64,000 bases of DNA from contig CAWFSF010000005.1 in the NCBI GenBank assembly GCA_963818475.1, positions 448,001 through 512,000 of the forward strand. The letters run 5' to 3'. Position numbers and translations under genes: made by a program. The notes beneath the pieces are model-generated. The model was not told the DNA's origin, ran no database searches, and saw nothing but the letters and a program-made list of their open reading frames with translations. The DNA comes from Nitrospirota bacterium (GTDB taxonomy: Bacteria > Nitrospirota > UBA9217). Shown here piece by piece: positions 1,458 through 27,230 of the stretch. The first letter of the stretch is position 1. The number at the start of each line of letters is the position of its first letter.

Positions 1458-2982
1458 CTAGAGCCGCTCAATGGCCCTTTTCAGGGCTTCCGCCTTCTCG
1501 AGCGTTTCCTCGTACTCCCGCTGCGGCACGGAGTCGGCAACGATCCCGGCCCCGACCTGAACGTGGGCCTGCTGGTCCTTGACCACGAAGGTCCGGATGA
1601 TGATGTTCAGGTCCAGGTCGCCGGTGTTCGCCAGATACCCGATGGACCCGGTATAGGGGCCGCGTGCCACCGGCTCCAGCTCGTCAATGATCTCCATGCA
1701 GCGCACCTTCGGCACCCCGGTGATCGTGCCGCCCGGGAACACGGCGCGGATGAGGTCGCATGCGTCCTTTCCCGGGGAGAGCGTGCCGCGCACATTCGAA
1801 ACAATATGGATCACGTGCGAATAATCCTCAACCACCATCAGCTCGTCGACCACGACCGTGCCGTAGTCGCAGACCCGGCCGAGGTCGCTCCGCTCAAGGT
1901 CAAGCAGCATGATGTGCTCCGCGCGCTCCTTCTCGTTCGTCAGGAGCTCCGCGGACAACCCCCGGGTCTCTCTGCTGTCGCCGCCCCGGCGGCGCGTACC
2001 CGCGATAGGCCGCGTGTCCGCCACGCCCTTCACCAGCCTGACGAGCCGCTCCGGCGATGAACTGACGAGCTGCAACCCCTCGAAATCCAGAAAAGCGGCA
2101 AAGGGAGAAGGATTTATCTCACGCAGGATCCGATAGAGATGCAGGGGGTCCACAGCGCCGATGGCCGCTGTGAACCGCTGTGAAAGATTTGCCTGGTAGA
2201 TGTCGCCTGCCGCGATATATTCCTTGCAGCGCAGGACCATCGATTCGAAGATCTCTCGCTGCATGTTCGGCTCAAGACGCACCTGGCCGCTGTTTTCTCC
2301 CGTCGAGGCGGGCGGACCCGGCATTGCGCTTGGCACGAAGCCTCTCCTCCGTGGCCGAAAGGCGGGCCACGGCCTCATCATAGAGCCGCTCCCACTGGTC
2401 CGGATCAGGCCTGCGGAACCCCATTTCCTGCTCACGCGCGCCGGGATTCACGATGATCCAGGCCCGGTTCAGGAGGTGGTCGAAGGCTACGACCAGATCG
2501 ACGAACACAAAATAGGCCTCGGGAATATCGAGGTCGCGTTTCGCGTTCTGCGGAACTGCCTCGAATTGACGAACAAAGTCGTAGGAGAAGAATCCGACGG
2601 CCCCGCCGGTAAAGGGCGGCAGTCCCTCGATGCGTTCGGTGCGGTAATTGGACAAAAGCTCCCGGAGCTTCAGGAGTGGTTTTTTATTTACCGTTGCACG
2701 ACGCCCATACTTGCCCGCAGGTGTTGCCGGCAGGCACAGTTCCACATTTTCTCCCTGCGACCGGAAGATGAGGTAGGGATCTGACGTGACAAAGGAATAC
2801 CTGCCCGTCCGCTCGGTGACCCGGGCGCTTTCGAGCAGCACGGCATGGCCGCCTGACCGAAGCGCTTCGAGCGCTGCCATTGGGGTGAGCGCGGGCTGGT
2901 CAAGAACGGCATGAAGCGGCAGTATGCGGCCGCTTCGGGCCGCGTCGAGGAATTCCTGTTTTGCTGGCGATATCGTATCCAT
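1458..2982 (-). CDS. pabB: Chorismate-utilising component I (aminodeoxychorismate synthase PabB / anthranilate synthase TrpE family); one frameshift near 2300-2430
   Basis: ORF 2272..2982 has LLESA..GRYSF and PPFTGGAVGFFSYD. ORF 1458..2435 has GDIYQANLSQ, SSSPE, KERAEHIMLLDLERSD, PGGTITGVPK and GAGIVADS. NPSPFAAF resembles PabB more than TrpE. Confidence 0.8.
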
Positions 2983-3046
2983 AAGAAATTATCCGTCCGA
3001 TATTAAAGTCTCCGGGACGGACGGTCAAGACAATTTTAAAAAATTA

Positions 3047-3074
3047 TTGCAACCTTGACATTTTGTGCTATACT
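3047..3074 (+). promoter_or_regulatory. sigma70-type promoter with extended -10
   Basis: TTGCAA (3047-3052), 16-nt spacer, TG-c-TATACT (3066-3074). Confidence 0.6.
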
Positions 3075-3120
3075 GAAATTAAAGAATAAGTGATCTTTGA
3101 AAAGAGTAAAAGTACAAAAC

Positions 3121-3428
3121 GGCGTTGCCGGACCAGCACCGTTCGGTGTATGCTTTTTAACACCGCTTATTAGGACCACGGTCGGTTGTTCTGATATGCC
3201 GAGATTGGAAAGTGGGCTGCAAGTTGAGTGGCCAGGCTCCCAACCTACAGGGTTCAGGATGACAGGAATTACCGAAGGCCCTCCGCCGGCTGCGAACACG
3301 GGAGAAAGGATCAATAAATGTACTACACCGGGTCTGCGCTAGCAGAGCCAAAGAAGCACAGTATTGAATTCCCGTAAGTATCAGCTGGCCTCGCGGAATG
3401 TTAAAATCCTTGGCCCGTAAGCAACGCC
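3121..3428 (+). ncRNA. Candidate large structured non-coding RNA, family unknown
   Basis: Ordered, nested complementary segments between the 5' and 3' ends plus internal hairpins; promoter upstream, terminator downstream; no protein-like ORF (see findings). Confidence 0.65.
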
Positions 3429-3446
3429 TTTTTTATGTATTTCCCT

Positions 3447-3477
3447 GCCGACCATGTAACTCATGGCCGGCTTTTTT
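3447..3477 (+). terminator. Intrinsic terminator
   Basis: GCCGACCATG-taact-CATGGCCGGC followed by TTTTTT. Confidence 0.75.
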
Positions 3478-3504
3478 ATGGTATTAATTCAAGTCAAAAT
3501 ATCG

Positions 3505-3590
3505 TCCGCAGATTACGCAGATTACGCAGATTTTAAAGACATGATTTAAGCTGCTTTGCCTTAATCTGTGAAATCTGCGTCATCTGCGGA
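3505..3590. repeat. Intergenic palindrome of tandem 9-mers
   Basis: (CGCAGATTA)x3 arm and inverted AATCTGTG-AAATCTGCG-TCATCTGCGGA arm. Confidence 0.85.
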
Positions 3591-3664
3591 TAAAAGATTT
3601 TGCTCTGATGTTTATCCTTCCTTATCAGACGTTCACGCTCTTATTGATCAATCCAAATGGTCTT

Positions 3665-5134
3665 CTATGCCTTTAGCATCTCCGGATTGGTGTGTGGAAT
3701 GAACACCGCGCCCAGATATTCCTTCATAAACTCCGGGTCGTCATCCATGGGTTTGTACGTGATCTTTTCCGCAAGGGCATTCACCGTCCGCACCAGCTCT
3801 CCCTCCGTGAGCAGCAGGCGCGCTCCGGCAAGCGATGAATTCCCGAGCGGCTTGACGATCTCAGGAGGCCAGGTCGGCAGCATGCCGATGCCCACAGCCT
3901 TTTCCGCATTAATGCCCGTGCCGAGCGCACCGGCGACATAGACCTTATCGATATCGCCGAAAGAGATGCCGACCGAACGGGTGAGCACCAGAAGCAGCGT
4001 GAACATGGCTGCTTTGGATTTCATGAAGCTCTGGATCTCGTTCTGCGTGATGTACAGTGAGTCCTGGCAATCGCAGGCAATGGCGAAGGCCGGCTCTCCC
4101 TCCCGGGTCGTCACGTGCCTGCCGGGCTGCAGCACCCCGCTTTTATCGATCACTCCCGCCTGGTACAGTTCATAGAGCAGGCTCACCATGCCTGAGCCGC
4201 AGATCCCTTCGGCCGGCCCCTGGTCAAAGGTCTTGCAGGAGATGTTGGGGCCGTCTATCGTCACATCATACACGATCCCCTTCCTCGCCCGCTTCCCGAT
4301 CCTGCTGATCCCTTCTTCGAGCGCAGGGCCGGCCGCGCCGGCGCCCACGATCATCCAGTCCCGGTTCCCGATCACCACCTCTGCATTGGTGCCCACATCG
4401 ATCAGGATCGAGATCTGTTCGGAGCTGAACATGCCCGACGAAAGGATGCCTGCGGTTATGTCGCCGCCGACATAGCTTCCCGCGTTCGGGAACGCGTAGA
4501 CGAGGGCTTCGGGATTCAGATGAAGATGCAGTTCCCTGGCGCTGAAGAACCCCGGCGTTCTCACCACCGGCACATAGGGATCAACGGGGATCGTGCGGAT
4601 ATCCAGGCCGAGGAAGAAATGGGTCATAACGGTGTTGCCTGCCACCGTCATGGCATGGATATCGTTCCGATCGATGCCTGCTTCATTACAGAGGGTCGCT
4701 ATCAGTTCGTTGATGCCCCGGATCAGGACGCCGTAAACGTCCGCAGCGCGTGCGGACATGGCGTTGTGCAGGCGGGTCATGATATCGCTGCCATACGCGA
4801 CCTGCGGATTTTCCAGGCTTCTCGTCAGCACATCCTGTTGGCAGTCATTATCGTAGAGCAAAGCCACGAGGTTCGTGGTCCCCAGGTCAAGCGCCAGGGA
4901 ATAGGATCGTTCGGCCCCGATGTCAATAAGCCGGTATCCCGATCCGGCCCGTCCTACGATGCACGTGAACGCCTGCCCGGCATTCACGAGTGCCGGAAGT
5001 TTTTTCAGGACCGCAAGCGGGATCGCGAGGGGTCCAAGCCCGAGGGTATCCTCTATCCGCTGATCATGCGCCCGGCGGTCATCGCTCGTGGGGGGCGGCA
5101 AAAGGACAGTTCTTTTTTCTATGAGTGCGGTCAC
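3665..5134 (-). CDS. ASKHA-family ATP-dependent reductive activator of corrinoid proteins (RACo/DUF4445-like), lacking the N-terminal Fe-S domain
   Basis: LALDLGTT, NPQVAYGSDIMTR, AGNTVMTH, YVGGDI, IDVGTNAE, AAGPALE, GICGSG, GNSSLAGA motifs; GTG start at 5134 after GGAGA. Confidence 0.85.
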   Translation of the reverse strand: MTALIEKRTVLLPPPTSDDRRAHDQRIEDTLGLGPLAIPLAVLKKLPALVNAGQAFTCIVGRAGSGYRLIDIGAERSYSLALDLGTTNLVALLYDNDCQQDVLTRSLENPQVAYGSDIMTRLHNAMSARAADVYGVLIRGINELIATLCNEAGIDRNDIHAMTVAGNTVMTHFFLGLDIRTIPVDPYVPVVRTPGFFSARELHLHLNPEALVYAFPNAGSYVGGDITAGILSSGMFSSEQISILIDVGTNAEVVIGNRDWMIVGAGAAGPALEEGISRIGKRARKGIVYDVTIDGPNISCKTFDQGPAEGICGSGMVSLLYELYQAGVIDKSGVLQPGRHVTTREGEPAFAIACDCQDSLYITQNEIQSFMKSKAAMFTLLLVLTRSVGISFGDIDKVYVAGALGTGINAEKAVGIGMLPTWPPEIVKPLGNSSLAGARLLLTEGELVRTVNALAEKITYKPMDDDPEFMKEYLGAVFIPHTNPEMLKA

Positions 5135-27155: not shown

Positions 27156-27230
27156 TGGTTCGGGGACAGGGTAGTCGAACCCCGATTAAAGGCTTCAAAG
27201 GCCTCTGTCCTACCATTAGACGATCCCCGA
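27156..27230 (-). tRNA. tRNA-Gln(TTG)
   Basis: TCGGGGATCGTCTAATGGTAGGACAGAGGCC-TTTGAA-GCCTTTAATCGGGGTTCGACT...CCCCGAACCA; typical position upstream of prs; one extra base in the T-arm is probably an error. Confidence 0.93.

Follow-up and report, generated by a model that had tools for sequence, protein, structure and literature searches.

The window analysed here, 64,000 nucleotides (nt) of a Nitrospirota genome (contig CAWFSF010000005.1, positions 448,001 to 512,000), contains an intergenic stretch at 2983-3664 that is flanked by two minus-strand genes. To the left, a gene for a chorismate-binding enzyme (PabB/TrpE-like) starts at 2982 on the minus strand; to the right, a RACo gene on the minus strand ends at 3665 and is convergent to the element under study, a plus-strand RNA gene at 3047-3477. 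An original prediction, made from the letters of the window, had read this gene as a stand-alone large non-coding RNA (ncRNA) that is not a leader of either neighbour and possibly forms a new class, and the analysis reported here supports that reading. We put the probability at about 0.85 that 3047-3477 (plus strand) is a real, independent, expressed and structured ncRNA of an uncatalogued class. The element is present in essentially every genome searched of one GTDB class of Nitrospirota.

A consensus scan confirmed the predicted plus-strand promoter at 3047-3074, a sigma-70-type TTGCAA-16-TGcTATACT arrangement with a -35-like TTGCAA at 3047-3052 and an extended -10 (TGTGCTATACT) at 3064-3074. 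An extended -10 (TGnTAnnnT; consensus TGTGnTATAnT) lies 45-94 nt 5´ of the closing stem, P1, in 34/35 homologous copies. Transcription is predicted to start near 3081, giving the primary transcript a putative 5´ leader at 3081-3112 (+) with a conserved motif, GATCTTTGAAA, at 3092-3102. In the form [GC][AGT]TCTTT this motif recurs in 31/35 copies, 29 of them having it 25-38 nt before P1, with outliers at 13 and 50 nt, and GCTCTTTGA is found in the leader of three further copies. The motif often sits within an inverted repeat, TCTTT-N1-3-AAAG(A) (13/35 copies; 3094-3105 in the window), which is of insufficient length for a hairpin in the RNA; a dimeric DNA-binding protein might use it as an operator just past the start site. 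Judging from the limits of the RNA contigs described below, the leader is probably removed by processing. The mature RNA (3113-3428, +) is 316 nt long, its limits taken from these metatranscriptome contigs and from a joint that connects 3428 to 3113. A U-run at 3429-3434 (+) follows P1 directly, and stem and run together make up an intrinsic terminator: a run of at least three T comes after GCA(A/G)CGCC in 34/35 copies, with no conserved T-run on the opposite strand in an alignment of 37 copies. The hairpin terminator that had been placed downstream was also confirmed, at 3448-3477 (+; GCCGACCATG-taact-CATGGCCGGC and a T-run), as a second, back-up terminator outside the RNA-contig cover.

A DNA search of 61 related genomes gave matches in 20, and the conserved block was exactly 3121-3436, which corresponds to the closing stem of the original prediction, everything inside it and the T-run. 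Pattern scans in which each GTDB species was represented by one genome, with the matches then sorted by nhmmer, yielded further members. The 37 copies were aligned with MAFFT and an RNAalifold consensus was derived, to which helix P3 was added. The resulting fold has 86 pairs in 15 helices, with compensatory change on both sides in 54/86 pairs. Of the 3130 cells, 88.0% were paired, compared with 32.7-45.2% when the partners were slid by 1-3 columns, and 0/500 shuffles reached any of five measures. A model-fitted alignment of 59 sequences (43 type-1 and 16 paralogue sequences), which leans toward the structure, had compensatory change in 51/59 core pairs and 88.1% of cells paired versus 29-46% for the slid controls. 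Loci L073, L138, L081, L230 and L210 were left out of it owing to short opposite-strand matches of the core model (20-38 bits) on true copies, which are reverse-complement echoes of the hairpin-rich domain B. The homologues therefore show strong covariation, the check that had been proposed for an RNA function.

From the outside in, the consensus architecture consists of P1/P1b, which joins the two ends, a side hairpin P2, P3, P4, and the domains A and B. The outer part of the originally proposed fold stands. P1, the outermost stem (GGCGTTGC(C)/(G)GCAACGCC, 3121-3129/3420-3428), is kept in the 37 homologues and is invariant or nearly so in sequence; the 5´ strand of P1/P1b, GGCGTTGCCGGACC, occupies 3121-3134 (+), with partners at 3412-3416 and 3420-3428. 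The other outer helices are kept with compensatory changes in the same homologues: CGGACC/GGCCCG (3130-3134/3412-3416), with such changes in 4/5 pairs of P1b; the side hairpin P2, CACCG-tt-CGGTG (3137-3148, +), with 98% of cells paired and compensatory change in 3/4 pairs; P3, TTTTAAC/GTTAAAA (3155-3161/3400-3406); and P4, CCGC/GCGG (3163-3166/3393-3396). The 5´ strands of P3 (TTTTAAC) and P4 (CCGC) lie at 3155-3167 (+), with partners at 3400-3406 and 3392-3396, and these helices are paired in 72% and 89% of cells, respectively, with UGAUA/UAUCA variants in several genera. From the alignment and helix counts, the 3´ strands of P4, P3, P1b and P1 span 3392-3428 (+).

Domain A (3172-3282, +) is closed by AGG/CCC, the AGG at 3172-3174 pairing with CCC(U) at 3279-3282, and holds helices 6-11, of which helix 11 has compensatory change in 12/15 pairs. 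It includes the conserved stretch GGAAnnnCCGAAnGCCC and a hairpin (3203-3245) whose loop, AAGTTGA (3221-3227), is nearly invariant; the predicted GGCTGC/GTGGCC pairing (3215-3220/3228-3233) is kept here with compensatory changes. Domain B (3285-3390, +) holds helices 12-15, with the pairings GCCGGCTG/CAGCTGGC and CGGGA/TCCCG; pairing of the GCTTC/GAAGC type borders its hairpin, GGGTCTGC-gcta-GCAGAGCC (3330-3349). In the RNA, GCCGGCUG (3285-3292) pairs with CAGCUGGC (3382-3389), a reading of the sequence that is one base off the alignment columns, and CGGGA (3298-3302) pairs with UCCCG (3371-3375). The GGGUCUGC/GCAGAGCC hairpin, proposed originally as TCTGC-gcta-GCAGA, is likewise kept with compensatory changes. 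By contrast, five inner helices of the original prediction (AGG-a-CCA/TGG-CCT, CTGATAT/GTATCAG, GGAA/TTCC, CTCCC/GGGAG and TCAATA/TATTGA) are absent from the consensus. They are pairings of the window sequence alone, part of its single-sequence fold, and are replaced by the helices given above; the core is made up of two domains and not of the three-arm junction that had been drawn. An all-against-all column covariation scan of the MAFFT alignment was too noisy to reveal pseudoknots. We also noted a possible loop-loop contact of AAGUUGA with UCAAU/ACAAU, in which the loop does not vary.

The distribution was followed with a core covariance model, R1, which comprises P4 and everything inside it (238 positions, 59 pairs) and was used in place of a full-length model; remote relatives outside the class were sought with R1 only. 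Matches were obtained in 61/64 genomes of the family, in 32/32 high-quality genomes and in 19/19 genera. The order scope contained the window's own family only (the same 64 genomes) and the class scope 57 of those, again of the same family only; at class scope, R1 matched in 57/57 genomes at least 80% complete. One order with one family seems to make up the GTDB class. When the phylum was sampled evenly, matches were seen for the window's family in 27/27 genomes and for 21 other Nitrospirota families in 1/123. This sole outside match (G158, 25 bits) looks false, since it lies inside a frame that is open across all 701 nt fetched and is without P1. Two pattern scans of genome contigs gave mostly chance matches in unrelated phyla and provide members, not a census; the true members among the matches listed were labelled Nitrospirota, Nitrospirae, Nitrospiria or Nitrospiraceae (L211-L249 stand outside this count).

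About a dozen genomes also carry paralogues, detected as full-length R1 matches of 26-52 bits elsewhere in the genome. The window's genome (G000, 91% complete) has two, one with its full RNA at C2:801632-801931 (+; R1 core C2:801679-801899) and one at C5:209514-209808 (-; R1 core C5:209561-209776), the P1 positions being those in L250/L251. They are 83% identical over 473 nt and lie in unrelated neighbourhoods. Both halves of P1, GGCG(T/C)TGC...GCA(A/G)CGCC, were present at a spacing of 282-299 nt in 14/16 paralogue places read. Most paralogues have a TTGACA...TGTGGTATAnT promoter that ends 5-7 nt before P1, leaving no leader, and a separate hairpin terminator 25-40 nt after P1 is the only terminator of the paralogues. 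About 70 nt of flank on each side of the G000 paralogues is conserved between copies and genomes, and the upstream flank of paralogues resembles the tail of the downstream terminator. Because P1 is conserved in sequence where pairing alone would allow change, it may be recognised by a protein or enzyme. Some genomes have more than one type-1 copy: G006 carries a tandem of three (separated by 157 and 77 nt), G007 has two at a distance of 3 kb, and in G016 the second copy is degenerate. In L081 (= G006:C90), the three tandem RNA genes were seen at 3684-4894, downstream of the PabB-like gene, the third being degenerate (74 bits, nhmmer).

RNA libraries contain the element. In 17 RNA runs (12 studies), 26-38% of its 31-mers are present; for runs without contig mapping, such shares (0.26-0.38) were not taken as habitat evidence. 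Contigs of four metatranscriptome runs from three studies (X1, X2, X4 and X8) were mapped on 2800-3800, and in all four runs the cover was confined to bins 3106-3445, with summed word depths, mixed from many related organisms, reaching 230,756 in X2 (490 contigs), 696 in X1, 71 in X4 and 63 in X8. Cover on 2800-3105 and 3446-3800 was zero except for two small unrelated pieces; no contig of the four runs covers 3072-3105, and contigs begin at 3113-3121. The signal is thus discrete and limited to the element, in contigs that do not show strand, and the absence of flank cover argues against both DNA carry-over and co-transcription with either neighbour. This absence is informative for the element flanks; in other parts of the window, a lack of contig cover is no evidence.

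Several of these contigs run from the end of the element back to its start. A contig of X1 (298 nt, depth 276) reads 3308...3428 and then 3113...3287, going back 316 nt, with 121 nt on the shorter side of the joint. A contig of X2, from a second study and from another sequence variant, has the homologous joint, reading ...GGTCCGATGGCAACGCC-TTTCAC- and then the 5´ flank and P1. Two less regular joints in X2 connect 3420/3421 to 3119 at depth 26-53. In both clean joints, the 3´ end is that of P1 or lies up to two U beyond it, and the 5´ end lies 7-8 nt before P1 at a conserved U(U/A)CA. Such joints reflect either circularised RNA or a reverse transcriptase that, having reached the 5´ end of an abundant linear molecule, jumps to the 3´ end of a second one. 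Either way they mark the mature ends and imply the loss of a leader of ~32 nt and of the U-tail.

From this anatomy, we suggest that the primary transcript starts near 3081, that processing takes away the ~32-nt leader by a cut about 8 nt 5´ of P1, and that the U-tail is shortened until the RNA ends with P1. In its mature form, the RNA would then act in trans as a ribonucleoprotein scaffold or as a ribozyme, our best guess, to which we give at most somewhat less than an even chance; a partner, or an enzyme of processing or ligation, would recognise it at the invariant P1.

A refinement of this scheme is that the mature RNA is a covalent circle of 316 nt, resistant to exonucleases, formed by ligation of 3428 to 3113, the two ends that P1 keeps together, once the leader and U-tail have been trimmed. 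We regard this as possible but rather doubtful. It would account for the X1 joint, for its homologue in the other variant in X2 and for the two further odd joints in X2, and no examined genome has copies abutting so closely, tandem copies being 77-157 nt apart. An RtcB ligase gene is present in G000 (match at C6:1410921-1412217, -), so that circularisation is possible but no more than that; many bacteria have RtcB, and the gene is split into two open frames (468 and 86 amino acids) in this assembly. The joints, moreover, come from assembled contigs only, and rare template-switch chimeras at the ends of a very abundant linear RNA give the same joint, which an assembler follows when nothing competes. 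The X2 joint contigs have a depth of 26-53, versus thousands at the same places. The fullest version of the idea, in which a class-universal and very abundant RNA is processed at both ends and ligated to the 316-nt circle, with the paralogue family sharing the invariant stem as recognition or ligation site, appears unlikely to us, at roughly one chance in four. If true, bacteria would have a circular ncRNA with a housekeeping role, which might form the core of an unknown ribonucleoprotein or be a ribozyme.

The joints bear on a second alternative, that the element is the RNA part of a mobile-element or defence system, such as an IscB/TnpB guide, a retron or a defence-associated reverse transcriptase (DRT)-type template. 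Rolling-circle reverse transcription of a defence ncRNA gives end-to-start joints of this kind, and some members have several copies per genome, as seen for the three tandem copies of G006, the two of G007 and the paralogues of G000. We nevertheless consider this explanation very unlikely, because the element is universal and syntenic across the whole class, unlike mobile or defence genes. In addition, Pfam searches of 15 neighbour proteins from representative loci revealed no reverse transcriptase, IscB or TnpB, a pattern scan of viral contigs gave four places, all of them chance matches that do not fit R1, and the 316-nt unit contains stops and is not a multiple of three.

The orientation of the gene was decided on several lines of evidence. 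Folding of the single sequence against shuffles gave z -2.92 for the plus strand and z -5.15 for the minus strand; since a single sequence settles neither whether a structure is real nor its strand, other evidence was used. Among paired cells in the alignment, G-U outnumbered A-C by 227 to 128 on the plus strand, and the RNAalifold energy was -153.0 for the plus strand compared with -136.1 for the minus strand. The T-run after P1 and the extended -10, each in 34/35 copies, are evidence for the strand that is independent of the structure derived on the plus strand.

Clustering of open reading frames (ORFs) places the RNA gene and the PabB-like gene in divergent orientation at 29/34 non-redundant loci, and tblastn finds the latter gene in 18/23 first-round loci; the clustering mislabelled the PabB-like gene as an antisense ORF in three loci, and tblastn shows the real gene for L012 (same region as L131). 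The distance from the element to the start of the chorismate-binding enzyme gene is 100-150 nt throughout, and the upstream neighbour is always divergent from the RNA gene. Beyond the PabB-like gene come genes for an SMC-like ATPase, thymidylate kinase (tmk) and DNA polymerase III delta´ (holB). Downstream, the genes differ in identity and strand among the 34 loci, RACo being found there only in the window's genus (3/23 loci). Constant upstream and varied downstream genes point to inherited synteny in a housekeeping region and not to a leader-gene relation. The 15 neighbour proteins included, by Pfam, the chorismate-binding enzyme, SMC-like ATPase, Tmk, HolB, a methyltransferase, a thioesterase, an oxidoreductase and RACo, and further ones were a hybrid-cluster protein, a histidine kinase, DUF72, LigD parts and a radical SAM protein. 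In 10/34 loci (L028, L067, L135, L083, L109, L079, L124, L075, L141 and L098), the strand of the RNA also carries a small MTS-type methyltransferase gene 0.4-3.5 kb further downstream, an adjacency that probably reflects synteny. In the window itself, the PabB/TrpE-like gene (1458-2982, -) is split into overlapping frames at 2272-2982 and 1458-2435 and is a single frame in relatives, which points to a frameshift or assembly error near 2272-2435.

The constant distance of 100-150 nt from the chorismate-binding enzyme gene (in 29/34 loci by ORF clustering and 18/23 by tblastn), together with the better minus-strand fold of the single sequence (z -5.15 versus -2.92), would also fit a minus-strand element that acts in cis as a 5´ leader, similar to a riboswitch or T-box, for the pabB/trpE-like gene. 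The evidence from the alignment runs the other way, in the 227 to 128 excess of G-U over A-C on the plus strand, the better plus-strand folding, the conserved T-run that follows the stem on the plus strand only and the conserved extended -10 that points rightward. The interval from the gene to the element, 2970-3105, has no RNA-contig cover, unrelated genes adjoin both the second copies and the paralogues that share the fold, and no riboswitch or T-box model matches; we consequently give this possibility very little credence. A riboswitch for the downstream gene is opposed by the varying identity and strand of the downstream genes in the 34 loci, by the convergent orientation of the next gene in the window (RACo) and by the terminator in 34/35 copies.

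Comparison with Rfam 15 (4227 families), with the family gathering score as the criterion for a match, gave only a tRNA for the whole window, at 27160-27230 (-), and none at the element. A search of 2950-3700 at E <= 10 gave four chance matches far below gathering, none spanning the element, and the paralogue loci had no match at E <= 0.1. A divergent form of a universal housekeeping RNA might be suspected from a size near that of RNase P RNA, the long 6S-like closing stem, the strong promoter and the housekeeping neighbourhood (tmk, holB), but we find this scarcely tenable. RNase P RNA (278 bits), 6S RNA (87.6 bits, at G000:C6:2028120-2028299), the small signal recognition particle (SRP) RNA (72.9 bits) and transfer-messenger RNA (tmRNA; 189.6 bits) are all encoded elsewhere in G000, above the Rfam cut-offs, and their models miss the element even at E <= 10. 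The 6S-like nature that the original prediction had suggested is disfavoured by the separate 6S gene and by a fold that is branched and not a rod with a central bubble. The other suggestion made there, a protein-sponge RNA on account of its GGA motifs, also fares poorly: no CsrA gene (PF02599) was found in the 91%-complete G000. In the consensus, the conserved GGA triplets (GGAAGAGCC, ACGGAAU) appear by inspection to occupy junctions and internal loops rather than repeated hairpin loops. The same genome gave no TROVE/Ro protein (PF05731), within the same 91% completeness.

That the element encodes the 81-amino-acid protein of an ORF at 3097-3342, which does exist in the window, we practically discount, given that 34/36 homologues have 1-5 stops in the aligned register (only 2/36 are without), that homologue lengths are mostly not multiples of three, that the longest open frame shifts between frames and strands, and that the substitutions are compensatory for pairing, leaving no codon-level conservation.

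Full-text literature searches found no description of the element, the supplements, where bulk predictions might list it, lying outside these searches; the main texts of 2026 language-model preprints hold no word beginning with 'nitrospir', and their supplements might list it. The element represents a class not in Rfam, with 'new' referring to Rfam 15 and the full-text searches.

Several points weigh against our conclusion that the element is an independent, structured and uncatalogued ncRNA. The plus-strand fold of the single sequence reaches only z -2.9, and the minus strand folds better (z -5.15). The structure in which G-U and A-C were counted was predicted on the plus strand, which biases the count toward it. 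Three incomplete genomes (68-74% complete) are without an R1 match, and two (G029 and G077) have R1 matches of paralogue strength only. The contigs show neither strand, true ends nor expression level, and their summed depth is a mixture of organisms. The claim that the class is not described is based on Rfam 15 and full-text searches only. Finally, no function-bearing partner was identified, the neighbours being either housekeeping genes or unrelated ones.

Between the RNA gene and RACo, we also observed direct repeats at 3500-3600, with CAGATTACG present 2.5 times (~3510-3535) opposite an imperfect inverted copy (~3567-3595). These form a long hairpin, which gave sub-threshold Rfam matches to plant microRNAs (25.8 bits versus a gathering score of 64).

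To our knowledge, only about a dozen classes of large, intricately folded bacterial ncRNAs are known. Such classes have opened new biology, including ribozymes, ribonucleoprotein machines and RNA cages. The element described here combines a well-supported fold with a sharply bounded distribution and with paralogues that separate invariant from free positions, and the RNA libraries show directly that it is produced in soils, sediments and estuaries. It provides a clean marker RNA for an uncultured Nitrospirota class and is ready for experiment. Should the joints come from genuine circles, the element would join the few circular ncRNAs that are conserved in bacteria.

Known systems resemble the element in different respects. 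Archaeal circular ncRNAs (C/D box sRNAs, rRNA intermediates and circular isoforms of omega-RNA; PMC9014305, PMC12558985) share with the element ends that a terminal helix brings into contact and end-to-start joints in RNA libraries; the host here is bacterial, the circularity is putative and suggested by contigs only, and no bulge-helix-bulge was seen, none having been looked for. Bacterial Y RNA, which works with Ro (Rsr), is similar in its end stem of conserved sequence, in the variable structured module beyond it and in the presence of several paralogues per genome. The element is much larger, however, G000 has no TROVE protein that we could find, and no Y RNA family among the 4227 Rfam models matched. 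Like the element, 6S RNA (RF00013) is a stable RNA with its own promoter and terminator whose ends are paired in a long closing stem, and 6S paralogues exist in some bacteria. The two differ in length (~316 nt versus ~185 for 6S) and in the core, which in the element is branched, consists of two domains and is without a central bubble, and the 6S covariance model gave no match. As a kind of object, an orphan large structured ncRNA, the element has precedents, and we take OLE, GOLLD, ROOL, raiA and HEARO to be the nearest. Like these, it is a stand-alone gene of hundreds of nt, restricted to a lineage and with a function not evident from its neighbours, and it has many helices kept by covariation as well as highly conserved loops and junctions. 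In contrast to them, it matches no Rfam 15 model, is not phage-borne as judged from one viral pattern scan, is both confined to and universal in one Nitrospirota class, and has paralogues that share its invariant closing stem.

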